Part shown: in pieces, positions 1-62,424 of the stretch
Layout: every line of letters begins with the position of its first letter
How positions within the stretch are numbered: position 1 is the first letter of the stretch
Assembly: GCA_024137785.1 (NCBI GenBank)
Contig: JAHRHZ010000268.1
Span: 16,323,206 to 16,387,205 of the forward strand
Source: Ginglymostoma cirratum
Lineage: Eukaryota
Direction: 5' to 3'
Length of the DNA: 64,000 nt
Program-made: the position numbers and the translations under genes
The notes under the pieces: generated by a model
What the model saw: the letters and a program-made list of their open reading frames with translations, nothing else
Database searches by the model: none
What the model was told of the DNA's origin: nothing

Positions 1-98
1 CCCCCATTTCTGATGAAGGGTTTAGGCCCGAAACGTCAAGTTTTCCTGCTCCTATGATGCTGCTTGACCTGCTGTGTTCATCCAGCCCCATGCTTGTT
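1..98 (+). mobile_element. Penelope-like element terminal repeat fragment with hammerhead core
   Basis: CTGATGA-A-GGGT..GCCC-GAAAC-GTC followed by the ttttcctgctcc..tgctgcttg.cctgctgtgttcatccagc tail. Nearly identical to 61117-61212 and related to the end of the GIY-YIG element at 45853-45950. Confidence 0.7.
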
Positions 99-519
99 TA
101 AAATCTGCATCCAGTTCCATTCTGTCTGCGTACCATTTGTAATTGGCAGAATACAAGGGCAGATAGCCAGCCTAGCACAGGGAGGCACGCCCATGCCTTA
201 AACAGTCTGAACATCCTTCTGGCCTCCCACAAAGTCTCTAAGTTCAAACTGATGACAGTCACTGAATGATCAGACCATCTTCTCCTACAATCGTTTTACC
301 CCAGTTAGGGTTTGGACCCTCCCAGCAATTGAAGACCACTTCATTCCTGGATCTGTAGTTCCATGGCTTCTTTCCAGTGTTCCCCATCCAACTTGAAGCC
401 AAGCCTGTCAATCAGTTTGACCTTGGATGGGTAACCTATCAACATATGCTATGGCGTTAAAACTCCACAGTGTACAGGGGAATTTTGACTTCTGAGTTTC
501 TGACATGCCACTAGACACT

Positions 520-1487: not shown

Positions 1488-1750
1488 AACACATAGGTTA
1501 GGAGCAGGAGTAGTGCCACTAGGCCCTCAATACTGTACTACCATTTAACAAGATCATGATTGCACTGATTGTTAACCTGAACTCCACATTCCCGCCTACC
1601 CTAATAGCCTATTATCCCTCGGTCAGCAAGAATCTATCCACCTTTGCCATAAAAATACGCAAAGACCCTGTTTCCACTGGCTTTTGAGAGAGTTCTAAAG
1701 ACTTACAATCCTCTGAGAGAAAAGATTTCACCTCATTTTTCTTACTTTTA
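1488..1750 (-). mobile_element. CR1/HER1-like LINE 3' end inserted in the + strand CR1
   Basis: taggagcaggagtag..ccattt.a.aagatcatg matches the tail of the element at 45951-46762. Confidence 0.7.
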
Positions 1751-1985
1751 AGCTTGCTGCAATTTTTTAAAATATTTTACAAGTTACTTTTTTTAAATTA
1801 TGAATGAAATGGTGTATTTCTAAGGTGGTGCAGGGATAGAAGGACTTGAGGATACTAGTGCATAGATTGTTGAAGATGACAAGAATTATGAAGAAACAGT
1901 TATCAAGCCTTATGGATCTTGGACTTCATAAATAGAGGTGTTGAATGCAATGACTGAGAAGCTGTGCTGAACAATTATAAAGCTC

Positions 1986-2145
1986 CATCTTCTAAATATG
2001 GACCGACATTTTCCTAGCTACTGTCAGTTCTGAGGAACAGTCACTCAACCCGAAACGTTAACTCTGATTTCTCTCCACCGGTGCTGGCAGACCTGCTGAG
2101 CGTATCCAGCAATTTCTGTTTTTGTTCCTGATTTATAGTGGCTGC
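1986..2145 (+). mobile_element. Penelope-derived short repeat with decayed hammerhead core
   Basis: cagttCTGAGGA...CGAAACGTTaact followed by gtgctggcagacctgctgag..tccagcaatttctgtttttg. Same family as 34585-34679. Confidence 0.65.
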
Positions 2146-2149
2146 AGTT

Positions 2150-2508
2150 TTGTTTTTTTTATTCATGGGATGAGGGCAACACTAGCAAGGCAGCATTTAT
2201 TACCCATCCCTAATTGCCCAGAGGGCAGTTCAGAGTCAACCCACAGCTGGGGGTCTGAAGTTACATGTAGACCAGACCAGGTAAAGATGGCAGCTTCCTT
2301 TCCTAAAGGACATTCGTGAACCAGATGGGTTTTAAACCGACAATCGACAATGGATTCACTGTCATCATTAGATTCTTAATTCCAGATGTTTATTGAAGTC
2401 AAATTCCACCATCTGCTGTGGCGGGATTTGAACCTGGGTCCCCAGAACATTGTCTGGGTCTCTAGATTAACAGTCCAGTGCTAATACCACTAGGCCATTG
2501 CCTCCCCT
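2150..2508 (-). mobile_element. tRNA-derived SINE with LINE-derived tail (near full length)
   Basis: Minus-strand head has an A box (TGGCCTAGTGG) and B box (GGTTCAAATCC). The tail matches the 3' end of the LINE at 48776. Other copies at 45708-48108 (split) and 51500-51705. Confidence 0.8.
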
Positions 2509-3519
2509 TTTGGTTTTTATATAGCTCTAATTGGGCCATAGATATTGTATTGGACCCTGTTTTGGTTACCACATTTTAGGAAGGGTAGAATTGTCCTTCA
2601 GAGGATTCAGACAATACCAGAATGGTTCCAAAGAATGATGCATTTTAGCTACAATTTTACGTTTGAGACAGTCAGGTTATCCTGCTTGGAGTAAAGGAGA
2701 TTGAAACAGTTTTGAAAGAGATGTACAGCATTATGACAAAGTTAGACAAGGTAAACACTGGAAAGCTGTTCCTTTTAGCTGATGGTGCAAGAACTAGGGG
2801 ACACAGGTTTAAGGTTATGCGAAGAGGTAGAGGGGAATAAGAAAAGAACTTTCTTTCAAAGCAAGTGGTAATGTCCTAGAAATTGTTGCCTATGGAGTTA
2901 GTGGAAACAAAGGTGAACAATTATTTCAATAGGAAACTGGATTGGCATTTTAAGAAGATACATTTGTATACCTAGGGGGAATAAAGCAGTGGAATGGAAA
3001 CAATGTGTATTCTCTACAGAGGGCTAGCATGGTGTTGATGGGCCAAATGGTCTCCCTCTGTATCATAGCAACTGTATAACTCTGTGATCACTACTCCCAA
3101 GTGGATCTACCAAAAGTTTACTAATGAAAACTACCTCATTACAAATTTCTTGAAACAGCCTGTTGCACTGTTGTTTCCTCAATGCATTGTCTGGGAAATC
3201 TATCTTGAACACCTTCTAAGAAATTGTTTACAAATTCCTTTTACTGATTCGCGTTGACTTTTTGTAAGACATGCATAATTGTAAATTACTTTAGTCACCA
3301 CTGCCAGTATTGGAGACCTACGAGATTCTGAATAACTGGCAGCACTCCAAAGCAAAGATGGGAACCACAACTCCAGTCAGGTAAGTGACTGATAGGTGTT
3401 AAATTTGGTTGGAGACTCAATGGACAAGGCCCAAAATTGTGAGCATTAAATTCCACCCAGTACATAAGAGAAAAGGGAAAAAGATTTCAAGCAAGTTAAC
3501 AGTAATATGATGAACAGAT

Positions 3520-4760
3520 TAACATACTTTGTGAGAAGTACTTTCTTATATCAATCTTAAATTTATCTTATGCTAGTCGGAAGGTGTCATTTTGTCCTCC
3601 TCTTGTATTTTAAGTCATTTTCTAGTTTTTCCATTTCAATGTCCTTCACTGTATTGAACAGTCCTATCTGATCAACTCTCAAGCACCTACTTTCATGGTA
3701 TAAAATCCCACATTTCGCCCATTGTACCTCATAACACAAACCTTTATTACTGGGGATCAGCCTTTGGCTTTTCTCTATTCTGCCTCCAATGCTAGAATGT
3801 CTCTCTAATTTCTCGATAACCAGAACTAGATTCAGTATGAAATGTACACAGTCTGTTCATAATATCATCTAACTTGGTTTCATAACTGTTGTAGTGTTAG
3901 TTGGATATGTGAAGAATCCGGTCAATTCAGACTCATCTCCAGTTTTCCAACTTCATTCTTTAGCCATTTGAATGCCATTCATTGAGTACTTATCTTGTCC
4001 ATTTCCCTTTTATGTGTGGGACTTTATACTTACCTGTAATAAATTTCTTCTGCAAGTTTTCTGCCTGATGCATAGATAGTCCAATTCATTTCAGAATTTC
4101 ATGCTGCAACTATCAACGTAACTTTCCTTCTTAGATTAGCATCATCTGAAAAATTAATTACATTAGTTTTTGAATGCAAATCATTAATATAAATTAATGA
4201 GTCATGCATTATTCAGCATTCCCTGATCTGATTATATTAACAGGTACTTTGTTTTTCTATATCAGCTAATTTTGTATCCATTCCCAGGATTTACCATGAC
4301 TTTTTTAACATTGTGAATTTAACTAACCTTGCATATGGATCTTTGTCAAATGCTAATTCAGACAAACTAAATCATAGGATTTTTCAGGGCACTAGGGTTG
4401 TCATTTCCTCAGATGTCAAGGAGATTTATATACAAGATGTTCCAATCTGTTGCCTTGCAGTTGCTGTTTACTGGATTATTCCTGTACAGATAAATGTACT
4501 ACTGATAATCAATTATATTGTTCTGCATGGAATTTAAGGAAGACTGGTTGATTTGTGGTTAGCTAAGTCTGTTTAGTCACCTTAGTTAAATATGGATATC
4601 ACCTTAGCCTGTTTCCAATCTAATATTTCCCCAATGTCCAGTAACTCTTTCATAATCATTAATAATATTCCTGTCTTATCTCTCTCAACACTAGGATAAA
4701 TACCATCTGCCCCGGGAAATTTTTTGAGCCCCATTAGCCTGTCAAGACTTTCCATTTACG
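3520..4760 (-). mobile_element. Very old CR1-clade LINE remnant
   Basis: Recognisable decayed RT blocks: ttagcatcatctgaaaa (FADD-like, reverse strand) and taccatctgccccggg (PGxDG, reverse strand). Confidence 0.55.
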
Positions 4761-12826: not shown

Positions 12827-12995
12827 TTGCAATTATTTCAAAACATATTGTATACAAGACTAGTAAGTTATACTGAATTTTACATTCATCAAAGTTTGTA
12901 CACTGAGTCACACATTTTTATACAAATTGATGAAGGATGGGGTGGGTAAGCATTTTTATAGGTAAACGTATTGCTTAGATTTACATGGCACTTAC

Positions 12996-13242
12996 TTTGC
13001 CCATATTGTCCATACTGGTATCCTGCAACTGGATCCATGCTGTAACCTGAGGAGCTATAAGTTGATGGGCAATATGATTGAGTGGTGGGTAAGCTGTCAA
13101 GAGGTTTCATAGGATCCAGCCGCTGACTACAGCTGGCAGAAACTGAAGTGGAAGGTTCCAGACCTCCAGTTAGTGGTGATAGAGCATAGTCAGTTTGTGG
13201 TTGGTGTGGAACACCACCAGGATTTGCCAGGAGACCCATTAC
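12996..13242 (-). CDS. pax3: Pax3 exon 8 (transactivation domain)
   Basis: tttctgcAG|[83 protein letters not shown]|GTAAGT. 247 nt. Overlaps ORF 12889-13239. Confidence 0.97.
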
Positions 13243-13589
13243 CTGCAGAAATGAAAAATAGCACTGTTAATAACATACCAATGTGAAACCTCTGTTTTAT
13301 TTGCATATGCATCATGGTTTAACAATTGTAGAGTACTTTGAAAACTGCTCTCACATATAATTACGCATCAGGTTTATGACCCTGAAGGCTAAGGTTACAA
13401 GCTTATTTAGCACTCCATGGATCCTGCGATATGAGCGCAATACAAATTACAGAACATATTGCAGTAATCCAAAGGTAGGTTTTCATCATATACTCCACTT
13501 CTAGTTCAAATTATGAGAAAGGGACAATGAGATTCAATTTCTAATATAAGGAAACTATGAGGTAAAAACAACTTGTGGCATTACTTATG

Positions 13590-34523: not shown

Positions 34524-34679
34524 AAAAACCAAAAGAACTGCGGATGCTGTAAATTGGAAACAAAAACAGAAGTTGCTGGGGAAATTCTGAGGAAGGGTCA
34601 GTGGACCCGAAACATAACTGATTTTTCTTCACAGGTGCTGCCAGACCTGCTGAGCTTTTCCAGCAACTTCTGTTTTTGT
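34524..34679. mobile_element. Penelope-derived repeat: inverted partial copy plus direct copy carrying a hammerhead core
   Basis: 20-bp perfect inverted repeat at 34560-34579 and 34660-34679, flanking CTGAGGA-A-GGGTC-AGTG-GACCC-GAAAC. Confidence 0.75.
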
Positions 34680-35225: not shown

Positions 35226-37056
35226 TACAGTTTCGCATAATTTGTGGGCCTGGTTTTAACCCATTCAAAACCAGTAAACACACAGAGAGAGTTAAAATTG
35301 ACTTGTGCAATATATCTCTGTTGCAATGATACATTTATCATATTCAGAAGTTATGACATTCATGACAATGAAACTAATCATGAACAGTATTTGAGTATTT
35401 TTAACAGAAGACAAAATTTCTCATTCTATTCCAAAAGCAATCTGTTTGATACTGCTATACCCTTAATCAATTTCTTGTGGAAGAGGAAAATAGGGTGTCA
35501 ATTAATTGTGTGCTCAATGTGCACAGAAACCAGGAAGGTTCCTATTTGCCCAAAGGGGAAACTTGTTTATTCAATCTTTATACTTTTCACAATACTGTGA
35601 ACTGCTGGATCTGTGAGTTATCAGTGCGCTGCAGAAAGCAGAGACAACATTGCATGATGTGACTGCACATTAAATAAAGAATAAAAAGCCACAGATGCAA
35701 GGAGTCATTTTGGCCACCCTTTGTGCCATTAGAATCTAATTTTCTGCCTATTAAAATGTCCCTTACTGTTCAGGCGGTAGCAGTAGCCAATGATTGGTGT
35801 GTAATTGACTATAATTGTCTTTTCACTTTTCATTTATATCATTCTGTGCTTCCTTCTGTTCTTCAATTTATAGCAAGATTTTCAAGAAAATCATACCTTT
35901 AACACTCCATATCCTAGCTTTGAAATGACTCACTTTTAATTATAGGATCCAGTCCCTTGTGACCAATATTAAAAATTAACTGGTGTACATATCAGATGAC
36001 ACCTGTGTCCAACTTATGCTAACAAATGGAGACAGTATATTTTAATAAAATAATAATGTCAACTTTCCACCAGCTGGTCATACATTTAAAAACTTTAAGG
36101 CTCTCCCAACGCTCTCTGCAATTATTCTATCTGAGGATAATTTACTGATCCTCTGGTAGCAATGTGAATCTTCTGCAGAGCAATAACATTGTGATATTAA
36201 TATATTAAAGTTGCTTAACAAAGCATTGAAAGATAAAGCATACATTTTAATCAAAGGGCAAGTTGATGCTGGCAGTTCTTATTTATGCATCTAATATCAT
36301 TTCCTGAACCATTTTCAGCAAATAAAGTGGCGAATAATCATGTGGATTCACTTCAATCACACATTGAAAGAGCTTGTTAAAGTAATACATCACTTTGTTG
36401 TGAGGTACTCCTCTTTTTTAACAATTCCCTTTTGAAATTCTTTGTTCAGTTTGTAGATTTACAATATATAAAGTAACACAACCGAATCACATTTTAAACA
36501 CAATATGCTGCATATCATTACTCTCAGTAATGTCTGGACTAAAATGAAGACAATATAATAAAATATACCCATTAGGCATGATAGCAGGAAAAAAAATTAA
36601 AACATGCATTAAACAAACTAAAAGAAAAACATGAATTAGTGAATTGAAAGATAATGAACATTTATAAATTGGGTTGTGACAATAACCTCAAAATTCTCAT
36701 TGAATTTCACATTGGAAATGGTTTCTGCTTCATTTCAAATGTTTCTTTGTAAAAGTCGTCAATAATTTTTGCATCATTTTTCCTATAAATTTTCACTTTG
36801 TGACCTTATTTAATTTTCCAACACTCCTAAAGGTGATAGATGCAGCAAATGCTTGTCTTATATAGCACTGAGAAAATTAAGTGTCTGAAAGATTGGTTTG
36901 AACAATGAATAGCTACAAACTAGCAGTCACATGAGACGCACAGACAGATTTGTGCAATGATTTAAGTTCAGAAATGCTTCTTTAATTTTGCCTTGGGTAG
37001 TAAACTATTTGGTTCATATATATAGTAGACACCCTGTTTTGAATCACAAAACTGAC

Positions 37057-37271
37057 CTGAGGTGAGAGGCCGTTGCTAACCGTTGGATTCATGGGATTGG
37101 TAGACCCTGCAGGAGACACAAAGCTGTCTGTGTACCCTGAAAATCCATGCCTGCTGGTGGATAAGCAATAAGCAGAACTGCTGTCTGGAGTCGAAGGGAG
37201 GCTGCTTTGGTGAACTGATGTTGGAGGCAGAGGCTGTGGCCTGTGAACTGTGTTGCTTGGATCTGAGATTG
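37057..37271 (-). CDS. pax3: Pax3 exon 7 (Pro/Ser/Thr-rich transactivation region)
   Basis: tgctttcAG|(A)[71 protein letters not shown]|GTCAGT. 215 nt. Lies within ORF 36982-37281. Confidence 0.97.
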
Positions 37272-40200
37272 CTGAAAGCACAATAACATTTATTGTATCA
37301 TTAGTGCTGCATCTTTTCGTTTCTTAAGAAATGACTAAACTAGGTCGAAAGGTGATATCTCATGTCACAGTCAACAGTTAAATTATTCGTGATAATTTTT
37401 CACATTCACCAATGCTTTTATTTCATGCTTCAAAATAATATTGTTTAATATTGAAGTGACTTCTGAAAAAACGGGACTCATTTATAAATGCAGGTTGAAG
37501 TTATGTAAATTACATCAAAATGCACCATTATGTCTCTAGCATGTGTTGTTATGGTGAACAAAATGATTCAGAGGCAAATTATCTTAGGTTATAATGTTGA
37601 CACAGAGCATCACTAGACAAGAACACAGGTCAGAGAATCAGGTACATATTAAAGTACCTGATTAGGAGCCTTCCAATTTTCTAATAACTGACGTTAACAT
37701 GCGAAGAAATGGAAGTGCTATAAATTGGACACGCTGGCCTGGATTTTCTCGGAACAGGTTATGTTGTGATTTTGGGACCACACGTAAGTGGGCAGCAATC
37801 TTCCAGTGCCACTAAGAGAGATCACTGCTGTCAAGAACATTTTCAAGAGTCCTCACAGGAGGGGGCTCTTTCATTCTTTCTCTGTCAGGGCCGGGCAAAC
37901 AGATCTCAATGATGACAGGTTCATCCTACATGGCTCAATGGGTCACCAAGGTGGCCTTTGCTGTTGACAGGCTCCTCCTAGGGCATGGAACCACTGGCTC
38001 TCATCTTCACCACCCCCTTCTCCTCAGATCCCACAAGGAGCCTGCCTCCATGCAACTAAACCACATGATGTGGCCCCATTCACCTCTGGAAAATTTCAGG
38101 TGGCCCCATTCACTAGTTAGCTCCAGTAAGTGGTGAGCTGCTATGCCTCTCATTCCACCATTGTAAAATGGCCTAGCAGTGGAAGTGTGTGGGGAGCCAT
38201 CACACCATGGCCCCTTGATATTTTAACAAGCCCCCTATCTAATCGTCTACCACCTGAGGACCCATTTTTTTCCATTCCCAAATCTTCAATCCATCTTTCG
38301 TCAAGCAACATCTATATTGTAAGCCTTGTCTTGCAAAAATATATCCTGTGTATTTTTTATGCTTTTTCTTCCTTTTTTGAGCAAACTATTTGCCGAATGC
38401 TTTTTCAGAAGGACATGCCTTTAAAAAGATCATTTCATTCTACTTGTTGTTACAACAGCAATTGCATATCATGTCAACACAAATTAAAGTTATGTAAAAA
38501 GTAGCCTCAGTGTGATTGACATGAGGATAGCTGGATAGTCTTGTGTTATATACAGCACTGCTGGATGGAATACACCACACTGTATAAATGGCATGGTATT
38601 GTGCACCATAAACATGTAGTTAGATGTTGTATTAACACACAACTAAATATATAGACAGTGACAGAATAATATTGGACTTCAACTTTATTGACAGATATGC
38701 GCATTTGTTTGTCATCCCCAGGTTATTTGTATTTGCATAAAGAGTGGAGGTGTAGAAAAGTTTCAAAACACCAGATTTTTGACGATTCAAAACCCATTCC
38801 CTTTCACGAGATCAAATTGAGCTCGAGCTTCATGCCTACTTGGAAAGTTTGGAAAATTCGAGGACAATTTTATTATTTTCCACCATGATGGATTCTTGTC
38901 TATTTTAATATCTATCCCTCTAACATAGTGATGGTCAACCTTTTTGCATGGGGTGGGTATAGACAGTGGGGATGTTGCAGTGTTTTCTCTCCTGGAGAGC
39001 AAGGGCTGGGGACAAGTTTCAGAAAGAAACAGGTTGCTGCAACAGTTTGGATTGATCACTGCTCCTCCAATCACAGGCTGGTCCTCTCCCACATTTTCTG
39101 CTGGTAAGTTCCCTTACTGCAGCAGTGCACGCAAGAGTGAAAGGGCATATGATTGGAGAAATCCGTTACAAATGTTTCCACTCATACTTACATGTATTTG
39201 AACCTCCAGATTCAATAAAACACAAATAAAACATGTTTAAACAAAAAATTCTCTTTACACATTTTACTTAGCTTATGACCCTTCTCATTTAAGCTTTTTT
39301 TATTATTAATTATGAGATTTTGGTTATGGGATGGTAATTATTAATTATGGGAACTCTATGAATGAGTTGTAAATATGTCTACCAGTGCAGCAGACGTCAG
39401 GCCATATGAAATGCTCTGGTGGCCCACAGGCCATTGGTTTGGGACTCCTACTCTAAAGTGTTAGCTGTCAGTTCTTTTCCTTCTGGGGCCAGGTTTAAAA
39501 ACCCGCTCATGCTGATTAGATGAAAGATTCCAATATCTTCTGGCTGCAAGTTTTCCATACAAAAGAGTATTTGGCCTCTCTGAACTCAGTCCTGAGTGAA
39601 TGTAAATCCATCAAACTAATTTGAGTTAAGTTCAACATCTCAGGTATGAAATTGATTTTTGGTGATAATTCAGAATGAGCAACTTCAATGGAAGAGGAAA
39701 TTAAGCACAGTGTAAAACAGGCTGACAATTCATTTTTACTGAACTTACAGTACAGCCAAAGAATAATCTCAGCCCATCCTTCGTTCCTTATTTATAATGG
39801 AAAAGGTAACATGACAGCAGTAGATGTACAATTCGGTAAGGTATCTATGGGTGGAAAAGTTTTCTCTATTAACTGTGTTACAATGAAATGCTTAGCATTG
39901 TTTGAAAGCAAACATTTTTGCTTTTGTTATACATGGAGTGGGGAGGCAACCTTCCACCATTGTGAGGGACTATAAACAGAGTTTAACTTCCATCTGAAAT
40001 GATTGACAGCGACACTGGGTCACAAAATGGCAAGTGTTCCATTTCCTAGTGCCGACATCTCGAGTACAAAAAGTTATCCAAGAATGTTTTCTTAAATGTA
40101 CACATTAAAGTCGTTTGATAGCTATTTTGCATAACTAAAGGTTATTTCAATGCCAAGAAACATCTGGAAGAAATGACTGCAGCAGAGACTTCAAACTGCC

Positions 40201-45852: not shown

Positions 45853-47890
45853 AGTGTGGAGCTAGAAAAGGACAGCAGGTCAGACAGCATCCGAGGGCCA
45901 GGAAAGTCAACATTTTGGGCCAAAACGTTCATCAGCACTGGGGAGAGAGAGAACATAAGAACATAAGAACTAGGAGCAGGAGTAGGCCATCTGGCCCCTC
46001 GAGCCTGCCCCGCCATTTAATAAGATCATGGCTGATCTTTTTGAGACTCAGCTCCACTTACCTGCCCACTTACCATAACCTTTAATTCATTTACTGTTCA
46101 AAATTTTATCTAGCCTTGCCTTAAAAACATTCAGTGAGGTAGCTTCAACCGCTTCACTGGGCAGGGAATTCCACATACTCACAATCCTTTGGGTGAAGAA
46201 GTTCCTCCTGATCTCAGTCCTACATCTGCTTCCCTTTATTTTGAGGTGATGCCCTCTAGTCCTAGTTTCACCTGCTAGTGGAAACAACCTTCCTGCCTTC
46301 ACTTTATCTATTCCCTTCATAATCTTATATGTTTCTATAAGATCTCCCCTCATTCTTCAGAATTCCAATGAGTATAATCCCAGTCTACTCAGTCTCTCCT
46401 CATAATCCAACCCTCTCAACTCTGGAATCAACCAAGTGAATCTCCTCTGTACCCCCTCCAGTGCTAGTATATCTCTTCTCAAGTAATGAGACCAAAACTG
46501 CGCACAGTACTTCAGGTGTGGCCTCACCAGGACCCTATACATCTGCAGCATAGCCTCCCTCAAGCGATAACAGACAAAATTCCACTCGCCTTTTTAATCA
46601 CCTGCTGCACCAGCAATCCCACCTTCAGCGATTCATGCACAAGGACACACAAGTCCCTCTGCACAGCAGCGTGCTGCAATTTTTTACCATTTAAAACATA
46701 GTCCATTTTGCTGTTATTCCTACCAAAATGGATGACCTCACACTTATCAACATTGTACTCCAGGGATCCCAGAAATAAATAGAGGGACGGGGTGGGGCTG
46801 AGGGGATGGTTCGTGAGATAGAGATAGGTGGATGCAGGTGGGGGTTATTGTGGTTGGTTAGTGAGAAGGGTGGAGTGGATAGGTGAGTCAGAAGATGGAC
46901 AGGTTGGGGATGGAGAGATTTTAAAGTTGGTGAAGCCAATATTCAGGCCATTGGGCTGTAAGCTCCCAAGGCAAAATATGAGATGTTGTTCCTCCAGCTT
47001 ACTTTTGACATCACTCTGACAGTGGAGGGGCCAAGGATGGACATGCCGAAGGGGAGTGGGAGGGGGAGTTAAAATGGTTGGCAATCGAACGTCGGGTTGT
47101 TTGGTGCATGCAGATCATGTATACTCCGCAAACCGGTCCCCAAGTCTGAGTTTGGCCTCCCTGATATAGTGGAGACCACATCAGAAGCAACCGGTACAGT
47201 AGATGAGATTAAATGAAGTGCAGGTGAATCTCTGCTGAATTTAGAAGGATTGTTTGGGGTCCTGGATGGAGCTGAGACAGGAGGGGTGTACGGGCAGGTA
47301 TAGCACCTCCTGCATTTGCAGGGAAAGGTACCGGGGAGTGGTGAAGGGGTTGGTGGGGAGTATGGAGCTGATGAGGGAGTCACAGAGTGAACGGTCCCTG
47401 TGGAAAGCGAACAGGGGTGGGGAGGGAAATCTTTTTGGTGGTGGGGTCTGATTGGAGGCATTGGAAATGTTGGAGGATGATGTGTTGTATTCGGAGGGTG
47501 GTGGGGACCAAGGGAACTCTATCCTTATTGTTGTTGGGGAAAAGCATTTGAGGGCAGAAGTGCAGGAAATGGCAGAGATGTGGCATCCTTAATAACAGAG
47601 GAGGAGAAATTGTGGCCCCTCAAGTAGGTAAGGTAATAGAGTAGAACACCTCATTCTGACAGCAAATGCAGAGGAATTGAGAGTACAGGATAGAATTTTT
47701 GCAGGAGGGTGAGGAGACATAATCATGGCAGTTAGTCGGTTTGAAATGGATGTCAGTGGTGAGTCCAGAGTCAGAAATGGTCCAGGTGCGTTTGAGGGCA
47801 CAGTAGAAGGAGTTGTTTGAGCTCCTCACAGGAGCATGAGGCAGCACCAATACAGTCATCAATTTAGCAGAGAAAGTGTTGGGGGCATAA
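45853..47890 (-). mobile_element. Penelope-like retroelement (RT C-terminus, GIY-YIG endonuclease, terminal repeat), split by a CR1
   Basis: ORF fragments TDIHFKPT (RT thumb), FPCKCRRCYTCPY (Cys motif before GIY-YIG) and KLEEQHLIFCLGSLQPNGLN (GIY-YIG C-terminus). Body at 46763-47890; terminal repeat with a decayed hammerhead at 45853-45950. Confidence 0.88.
45951..46762 (-). mobile_element. CR1/HER1-like LINE, 5'-truncated, innermost insertion
   Basis: ORFs 46357-46563 (YRVLVRPHLKYCAQFW) and 46087-46353 (RGDLIETYKIMKG..TRTRGH). Tail gaacataagaacataagaac. Confidence 0.93.
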
Positions 47891-60720: not shown

Positions 60721-61116
60721 TTGCCAACATGCTTTTATATGCAATGATGTTTTTCTTTGGTGATGTTGATCTAGGAGAAGATGATGTCAGTACTCATACA
60801 AGACTTACAATCCCCTTTTGTCTCTTTGCAACATGACTTAATTGCAACAAGGTCGCTATGTCAGAGCTCCATGTAGAAGCATTCCAGACAGAGTGCTGTC
60901 AGTGTGCAAAGTGCTGTAACATGCTGTGCACTGCATAGCTGGAGTAGGCAGAGGGGATGTGATGGATGCTGAAGAACTAGGAGAGTGGAAGCAGTCTTCT
61001 GAAGAGGAAGGTGAAGACATTGAAAAACAGGAAAAACATCATGTCCTGCCAAATAGAGTTCAACTGCATCAGATGCAACAACAGGCTGGACTTAATTGAC
61101 TTCTGGACTTAATTGA

Positions 61117-61212
61117 TTTCTGATGAAGGGTCTAGGCCCGAAACATCAAGTTTTCCTGCTCCTATGATGCTGCTTGGCCTGCTGTGTTCATCCAGCCCCA
61201 CGCCTTGTTATC
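61117..61212 (+). mobile_element. Short Penelope-derived insertion with hammerhead core
   Basis: Near identical to 7-98. Flanked by copies of TGGACTTAATTGA(C/T)TTC. Confidence 0.75.
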
Positions 61213-62424
61213 TTGGACTTAATTGACTTCTGGTTCTAGTAGATGAAAACTGGGTGGAATGTTGACTCATTGACTATAAGTGGTTTGGTGCTCAAGAAGC
61301 AAGCACCCTGTTTCTGTTCCCAGAGGCAAACAAAGATTCTGTTTGTTTAATTTTTGATCGCTTTTGCTGAATAAAAGTGAAAGTTTTGAGCCATTTAAAG
61401 GCTTTCCAGTGTGTGATAATCTCTCATTAAACAATAAGAAGATGCTTAACTACACTGGGCACTGGGGAAAGAATGACATTAACATGGACAAGAATGTAAA
61501 AAGGCATGAGGCTCAGGATGGGTATTCTGTTTGGCTTGGTTCTTAAATAGCTATAGATGTACACATGTGCACTTGTACATGCAATGGAGCATCAGCATGT
61601 CACCTTGGTGCCCTGAGAAGTGTTAGTTTGTGATTGTACTGCCACCATGTGTACAATGATGGACTGCCAGCACTTGACCATGTAAATGACTGGCCTCAAA
61701 GTTGGCTCCGAAACCAGAGGTCCTGGGATGTCCTGGCTGTGGAAAGTACATATACATTACCAGGACACTATAGGGTTGAAGTGCATGGGTAGTGAGGTGA
61801 TTTGAGAAGATAGTGTAAAAATGTTTGGTCAGATTCTCCATGAAACTCAAACAGAATTGGCACTTAGCTGATTTCTGGTAGAATTCAATTCCATTTTGGG
61901 GTTAAATAATGAGGGAAATTTTCAACCTTCACAGACACAAAATTCCTTTCAGAAACAGGTTATCCATCCATTATACACAGTGCCTTTTATTTTTCTTCCT
62001 AATGAAATAAATGGAAATCAGAGAGGCGTATAATGAATAGCTGAAACATTACCTGGTATTCCTGCCTCGCTGAAACAGAGGGTAACCTCCAATACAATTG
62101 AAATTGCTACAAACTTAGAACCAGGGAAATAAGATGAATCTTGAGGACAGAAATAGTTGGTGGTGAACATGTGGAGAACGGTTCTAGCTGGAGACAAATA
62201 TAGAATGTTTAAGGAATAAACAAGGATAACTTAAGTAAATTAAGGATAAATAAATAAGTCAATAATTGAACATCATTCATTTTTCCGGGACCAATCAGAT
62301 GGACTGCACATTGCTGTACATACCTGTGTTCTCAGGTTGTTGCAATAGCTATTTATTGAATTCCGATCACCATTTTTCAAAAGGAACAACAATCCTCCAT
62401 TATAATCTCTGTCACCATAATATC

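Follow-up and report, generated by a model that had tools for sequence, protein, structure and literature searches.

Introduction

Minimal type I hammerhead ribozymes are a described component of Penelope-like elements (PLEs): the pairing was reported by Cervera and De la Pena (2014, PMC4209133), in whose account the PLE hammerhead monomer is inactive and dimers are weakly active. In the anole PLE the hammerhead cuts only in the presence of protein, the uncut RNA is the main template, and two reverse-transcription start sites bound the tail (PMC11167929). A further account (PMC8557442) calls the role of the ribozyme for PLEs unclear, and gives a CX2-5CxxC linker as a mark of the Neptune and Nematis elements.

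Here we describe a hammerhead motif at the start of a 64,000-nt stretch of the Ginglymostoma cirratum genome (contig JAHRHZ010000268.1, 16,323,206-16,387,205; the window, meaning the whole stretch of DNA that was analysed). The hammerhead-PLE pairing being already described, the motif is correctly recognised but ordinary. Its many genomic copies narrow the role of the PLE ribozyme, since the RNA that was copied appears to have held the whole ribozyme, and copies stop at its first base.

The hammerhead motif and its host element

The features at the window edge are as follows.

1..96, plus strand: right arm of an inverted PLE insertion, comprising the 3' part of the pseudo-LTR (pLTR) and ending without the ~35-nt tail
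6..41, plus strand: minimal type I hammerhead of family A, identified from its sequence, cross-family pair counts and the descriptor features in the accessible text of PMC4209133
12..58, plus strand: predicted short reading frame of this subfamily, with its ATG within the catalytic core and 14 codons to TGA
97..108, no strand: right copy of a 12-bp target-site duplication (13 with a shared G), with the left copy at 4634-4645 of stretch L031

The first-pass annotation had read hammerhead parts at 6-41, including an extra A, a 4-bp stem I and a palindromic stem III, and the sequence reads exactly so. Stem I joins 6-9 to 38-41 (A-U, U-G, U-A, U-A); the core CUGAUGA occupies 10-16 and is followed by the unpaired extra A17; stem II (18-21/26-29) has three G-C pairs, one U-G pair and a 4-nt loop; GAAA lies at 30-33 and the zero-loop palindrome ACGU at 33-36. 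C37 is residue 17, and the cut is predicted directly 3' of it. The motif thus has the CUGANGA core, GAAA and NUH of PLE minimal hammerheads, their unpaired base separating positions 9 and 10.1 (A17) with a G10.1-C11.1 pair (G18-C29), and their palindromic helix III without a loop, and it is almost certainly one of them. The loose pattern CUGANGA...GAAA matches 17 times in the window against 6.08 expected, a count reached in 1 of 100 shuffles; this excess and the genome-wide count of the core (below) show that the motif is not due to chance. Rfam gave no gathering hits across the window and no hammerhead at E up to 10 in positions 1-300, which is not evidence against a hammerhead because Rfam models expect a loop 3. 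The view that this is the most canonical core in the window also stood, as 6-41 alone among its window relatives keeps core, stem II and palindrome. In the predicted fold of the monomer, core U11-G15 pairs with C34-A38 (probability 0.58-0.69) and the stem I pairs have probabilities below 0.01.

The core ATG opens a 14-codon frame in young subfamilies and a longer frame, running through the tail, in an older subfamily that has one A fewer after the cut (stretches L082 and L093). The single A that lengthens stem I also shifts the frame opened by this ATG.

A Penelope origin, proposed in the first-pass annotation, was borne out by long copies that run upstream of the same repeat into a GIY-YIG domain, a CX4CX2C linker and a reverse transcriptase (RT). 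The profile matches (RVT_1, E 8.4e-05; GIY-YIG, E 2.7e-04) are both below the Pfam curated cut-offs. The arrangement is that of endonuclease-bearing (EN+) PLEs: GIY-YIG is C-terminal, follows the RT and contains two cysteines, and the sequence between RT and endonuclease fits the CX2-5CxxC linker as CX4CX2C. One broken, near-full copy (L252) carries the N-terminus, DKG, RT, linker, GIY-YIG and 3' hammerhead in that order. The main ORF opens with an ATG ~166 nt downstream of core C3 and ~138 nt downstream of the cut, past the end of the window 6-41 copy, and from this position and the ordered parts of L252 the element unit is ~3.4 kb, ribozyme to ribozyme. The hammerhead thus lies inside the pLTR of a PLE, and the best explanation overall is that its host is a Neptune/Nematis-type element, an assignment that we consider probable. 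Neptune is preferred over Nematis because the accessible text of a preprint (10.64898/2026.07.22.740005) lists Neptune and Poseidon in vertebrates.

Insertions of this element carry the signature of EN+ PLEs, namely an inverted 5'-truncated arm, a one-sided tail and a target-site duplication, both at the window locus and in a sample of inverted pairs. In that sample the tail was on one arm alone in 62 of 68 pairs, and 55 of the 68 shared a flanking word of at least 9 bases (median 14).

The insertion and its neighbourhood

The window copy is the right arm of a head-to-head insertion of the usual inverted PLE type. It runs upstream into 5,000 N directly before the window start, which is read as an assembly gap because other places in the genome, often inverted copies, also have runs of 10, 100, 400 and 5,000 N. 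The left arm lies outside the window (stretch L031, 4646-4906, minus strand) and holds the tail, an intact hammerhead and 147+ nt of native upstream sequence. Since the two visible hammerheads are on opposite strands, no dimer in cis can form between them. The first-pass annotation had placed the window copy within tandem terminal repeats; its visible partner is instead inverted, and the 5,000-N gap may hide more. In any read-through RNA from the locus, the single sense copy would pair with its own antisense arm, which would block folding. The window hammerhead is likely inactive at its locus, and the copy is very probably a relic without a role.

The coding sequence of a paired-box homeobox gene on the minus strand ends ~11 kb short of the insertion (stop codon at window about 11,140), with exons at 11140-45400 of the window (minus strand) and at 1600-4400 of stretch L136 (Pfam PAX, E 2e-43). 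Most of the window DNA is intronic to this gene, the exons of which include the following.

~45307 and 41334, minus strand: homeobox exons
~36985-37323 and 12892-13266, minus strand: later exons
~11168, minus strand: last coding exon

By its C-terminal words, we take the gene to be PAX3.

Related copies, families and decay

The 28-nt core has 55,464 exact matches in the 4.36-Gb genome and none when read backwards, while the 31-mer just downstream has 156,717 matches. Perfect head-to-head palindromes of the element break the assembly into 400-N gaps and duplicated arms, as at L032-L036, L013/L014 and many other places. The effect is to raise copy counts artificially and to imitate an element of 455 bp. 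Many inverted pairs are spaced ~455 bp apart; this spacing, an artefact of the 400-N gaps at palindromes, was rejected as an element length. Copies with an ORF start, 20 of which were examined out of 1,857, often jump from the first 20-130 codons directly to the pLTR (L231-L250), and in 13 of the 20 a hammerhead on the same strand follows within the next 1.5 kb, at a distance that differs each time.

Relatives of the motif within the window belong to family A and to a second family, B.

2011..2160, plus strand: family B pLTR copy, with core and palindrome kept and stem II broken (motif at 2030)
34524..34679, plus strand: family B fold-back copy, with an inverted arm at 34524-34579 and a forward arm from stem I at 34585
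45856..45943, minus strand: old degenerate family A copy, 71-77% identity
56367..56478, minus strand: degenerate family B copy
61116..61209, plus strand: another family A copy (94.7% identity), which begins with the initial base of stem I

The motif at 61120 has its palindrome decayed to ACAU, and ACAU also stands where the palindrome was in the motif at 34587. The copy at 61116..61209 is flanked by a 20-bp direct repeat (61087-61106 and 61214-61233), and within 61087-61233 part of the target sequence is additionally duplicated at the 5' junction of this short, stem-I-starting copy. Two further traces of PLEs were seen: a decayed endonuclease region of the same cysteine-linker type but from an older family (window 47072-47588, minus strand), and a different hammerhead in stretch L139 (4481-4534, minus strand) with a 7-bp stem II, a 6-bp stem I and the same ACGU palindrome, located ~600 nt downstream of an RT remnant from another PLE type.

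Families A, B and F were gathered by downstream sequence rather than by fold (20,544 exact matches of a downstream 35-mer for B; 3,148 exact matches of the downstream sequence for F), and the core could be placed in 154 of 243 family A, 35 of 60 family B and 23 of 38 family F copies. Pairs were counted by motif anchoring because MAFFT alignments shifted family F by one column and put family E in the wrong place. The 15.2-16.2 pair is C-G in A (118) and B (17) and G-C in F (20), a swap that preserves the palindrome, which reads ACGU in A and B versus AGCU in F (20 of 23 copies). Helices I and II also covary across families: stem I pair 1 is U-A in A and B and C-G in F, stem I pair 3 is U-G in A, G-C in B and C-G in F, and stem II pair 3 is G-C in A and B and A-U in F. 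G10.1-C11.1 and A15.1-U16.1 are common to all three families (the latter present in 152 of 154 family A copies, where C17 stands in 99%), and the extra A at 9/10.1 is found in 99, 97 and 87% of A, B and F. Two single copies from further families fit the fold, both having been chosen for having stems. This three-family covariation in stem I, stem II and the palindrome indicates that the fold is selected in source elements. The dimer logic of the first-pass annotation gains from the same comparison, in which the palindrome was kept through compensatory change between A/B and F.

Inserted copies, judged by their substitutions, decay neutrally. Among the 60 of 100 sampled copies that reach the motif start, divergence within family A was 1.8% at the 11 core positions (1.0% without CpG), 1.5% in the downstream flank and 3.2% in the upstream flank, and core, stem II and palindrome were all kept in 28 of 91 uncensored family A copies. 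The comparison of core and flank across copies, put forward in the first-pass annotation as a test, thus found no difference within the family (1.8% versus 1.5%), while the comparison between families supports the fold; the absence of a within-family difference is not a refutation because it is expected of neutrally decaying copies.

Stem I of family A is the weakest of the families seen, with pair 4 formed in 38% of copies (truncated copies included) and only 2 bases paired in the older subfamily. The computed folding energy of the family A target dimer is -5.1 kcal/mol versus -28.8 for an inactive duplex, in a nearest-neighbour model that ignores tertiary contacts and protein. Given the weak stem I and this unfavourable dimer energy, family A may be a poor ribozyme.

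Where copies begin

The 5' ends of copies were mapped in the first 100 plus-strand matches of the downstream 31-mer, taken from the first 3 Mb of one contig (C1); 13 of these copies are cut by gaps, 21 extend beyond -150 and at least one is an assembly duplicate. Ends pile up over the opening bases of stem I. Of 60 copies at risk, 28 stop at -33..-29 from the cut (9.3% per base), and a lesser peak lies at -28..-19 (1.9% per base). Stopping rates elsewhere were 0.36% per base at -60..-34, 0.36% at -18..-3 (5 of 88 at risk) and 0.47% at +3..+17 (7 of 99 at risk). The cut site left no footprint in this sample, as stops at -2..+2 (3 of 92, or 0.65%) were not above the neighbouring bins. Across the genome, 29,143 of 55,464 exact cores (52.5%) keep 7 native upstream bases, against ~83% expected from the per-base decay. 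The pile-up recurs in family B, where 16 of 29 ends fall at -5..-1 from C3, and family F is suggestive (6 of 30 at -5..-1 and 8 at -10..-6) but blurred by divergence.

Fold-back junctions tell the same story genome-wide: 1,362 strand matches, many of them counted on both strands, have arms ending at stem I, whereas 92 lie around the cut and 56 and 43 in two downstream control stretches. Of the 92, 47 have no templated letter past the cut, as read from the lists. Because two T are shared with the other arm, these 47 cover three positions, or ~16 each, against 24 for position +8 alone, and there is accordingly no excess of fold-backs at the cut.

Reads from a poly(A) RNA run, presumed to be from the same species and possibly unstranded, cover both strands of the pLTR equally (4,738 versus 4,911 at the ribozyme), and 87% of pLTR reads continue into other sequence, consistent with these reads being passengers in host transcripts. 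The run showed no position where many molecules start or end, a weak test in a fragmented library. The ends predicted just after position 37 therefore did not materialise as an excess in copy ends, fold-back junctions or poly(A) reads.

An extra G, as might come from a cap, was considered and set aside: G precedes 6 of 10 ends at -32 in the mixed sample, and the cleaner set had too few and too irregular copies to build on. The junctions of 23 non-inverted copies, 7 of them with a duplication of at least 9 bases, had neither a constant extra G nor a constant leader.

These patterns suggest that the element RNA likely starts at the ribozyme and that uncut RNA is copied. The stem-I stop occurs in two families of different sequence without an excess at the cut site, and the question is thereby sharpened to where the RNA starts and whether cutting removes its cap.

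Proposed mechanism and alternative readings

In a source element, transcription would begin at, or close to, the initial base of stem I, and two RNAs, or the two pLTRs of one RNA, would pair via the palindrome to form helix III. The paired hammerheads would cut slowly after residue 17, probably aided by the protein of the element. That protein would nick both target strands ~14 bp apart, and reverse transcription would be initiated from two tail positions and proceed to the RNA 5' end. With mostly uncut RNA as the template, short and fold-back copies would result. Slow cleavage in source elements, aided by dimers or protein, seems to us fairly likely. A bolder extension is that transcription initiates on the first base of the hammerhead and that the ribozyme serves as a 5'-terminal switch, in which uncut capped RNA is translated and copied while palindrome-paired RNAs lose a 32-nt capped leader. 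We regard this as doubtful; if true, the switch would act as a concentration-dependent brake on transposition with cut RNA retired, and the tens of thousands of stem-I-starting copies would be a fossil map of the transcription start.

Other origins for the window copy and its short relatives fit less well than insertion by an autonomous PLE. Co-option of the window copy for processing or regulating the transcripts of the nearby Pax gene could be imagined from its place ~11 kb past the stop codon and from the left arm, which is sense to the gene and has an intact core. However, motif 6-41 is identical, letter for letter, to thousands of young copies, so it is intact because it is young; the minus strand has 21 AATAAA hexamers between the Pax stop and the insertion, and the inverted arm would pair with the hammerhead arm, making such a role extremely improbable. 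The short copies might instead constitute a non-autonomous retrozyme family, whose tandem transcripts would cleave themselves into monomers that are then circularised and reinserted, along the lines that the first-pass annotation had entertained. The ribozyme is present in 64 of 100 sampled copies, and 5 of these 64 have a same-strand partner within -700/+430 bases, compared with 19 that have an inverted arm and 12 a gap; hammerheads stand on both sides of 6 of the 20 ORF-start copies (~220-570 nt), and the accessible text of the preprint 10.64898/2026.07.22.740005 derives animal retrozymes from PLE pLTRs, in one case in a chondrichthyan. Yet unit lengths and junctions all differ, so there is no amplified unit, and copies run from stem I to tail rather than from cut site to cut site. 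Retrozymes carry a canonical type I hammerhead with a 6-bp helix I and loop contacts, whereas the helix I here has 4 bp and the motif no Rfam match; no tandem array of one hammerhead-bearing unit was seen in the window, the partner of the window copy that is visible outside the gap is inverted, and no circle closing at the cut appeared among the 15 joints shown of 220, in a poly(A) library unsuited to circles. The retrozyme idea is thus very unlikely to hold. The same-strand tandems look like one-off template jumps, and the short copies result from insertions of the autonomous element that were inverted or truncated at the 5' end.

What the stem-I pile-up and the conserved fold signify is less settled. 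That the pile-up marks the RNA 5' end is the simplest reading, and one on which we are evenly divided. It could also come from splicing, from a reverse transcriptase that stops there or from an endonuclease that cuts the DNA of the element itself, alternatives that together are credible although we lean against them. Family A has at this point the ATT that the anole endonuclease favours (PMC11167929), with C-runs shortly before it and, 23 nt upstream, TTTCAG, which resembles a splice acceptor; in D. virilis an intron ends at helix I (PMC4209133), with the start ~120 nt further upstream (a 46-bp exon and a 75-bp intron). Families B (AGTT) and F (CAC), however, lack both ATT and C-runs, B breaks at the same position, and no constant exon is joined upstream of the copies, all of which argues against these alternatives. 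As for the ribozyme itself, the fold may be real while family A no longer cuts, the motif persisting as a passenger or serving as promoter, leader or protein-binding element. The weak stem I, the competing core helix and the missing cut-site footprint would suit such a loss, as would the catalytic mutants of the anole element, which leave insertion in vitro unaffected (PMC11167929), and the success of PLE clades without hammerheads (PMC8557442). Against it, 11 of 11 core positions are free of subfamily-level changes (few sites, and not significant alone), such changes falling at N7, loop 2, stem I and the flanks; three families retain the palindrome, with residue 17 remaining C or U, and younger subfamilies lengthen stem I stepwise, with 2, then 3, then 4 pairs. 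We therefore consider a non-cutting family A unlikely, and slow, aided cleavage remains the preferred reading.

Comparison with known systems

In the openly accessible article text, our search returned no report of shark PLE hammerheads or of 5' ends at stem I; where the word shark turned up with PLE hammerheads, it referred to the name of the fold. The closest match to the motif is the set of PLE hammerheads of Cervera and De la Pena (2014, PMC4209133), which share the absent loop 3, the palindromic 15.2-16.2 pair, the extra nucleotide between 9 and 10.1, the G10.1-C11.1 pair and a helix I of 4-5 bp, and whose copies are likewise mostly solitary, with opposite-strand pairs 100-700 bp apart. 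That paper names fish Neptune and Poseidon elements; its accessible text does not name sharks or map the 5' ends of copies. The shark element differs in its short stem II (4 bp) and in abundance, with 55,464 exact copies compared with ~4,000 in coelacanth and 9,000 in Xenopus.

Metazoan non-LTR retrozymes (PMC7229834; 10.64898/2026.07.22.740005) share the type I hammerhead, the PLE connection and occasional tandems of a few hundred bases. The retrozymes of PMC7229834, however, have canonical hammerheads with loop contacts, long one-unit arrays and abundant circular RNA, none of which was seen here. Whether the tandems qualify depends on the definition: they would pass the loose one of the 2026 preprint (two tandem units), as far as its accessible text gives it, but not the 2020 description (PMC7229834: canonical ribozyme, arrays and circles).

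Another close system is Poseidon of Anolis carolinensis (Frangieh et al. 2024, PMC11167929), which has a pLTR hammerhead, two tail ends matching two RT starts, nicking and extension of both strands, an uncut RNA template and, in its accessible text, no RNA-seq reads ending at the cut, all as in the picture drawn here. Poseidon belongs to a different clade, and its ORF starts at stem II and spans the cut, whereas the shark element has its main ATG ~138 nt after the cut and a short frame opening in the core.

The insertions themselves resemble those of EN+ PLEs (PMC3846280, PMC8557442) in that their arms lie head to head, one end carries a tail of 30-40 bp, the target is duplicated, the assembly breaks at inverted structures and the CX2-5CxxC linker of Neptune and Nematis is present. 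Duplications are longer than in the rotifer examples (~14 bp versus 8-10 bp), and many insertions in the shark retain just the two pLTR ends, the start being fixed at the ribozyme.
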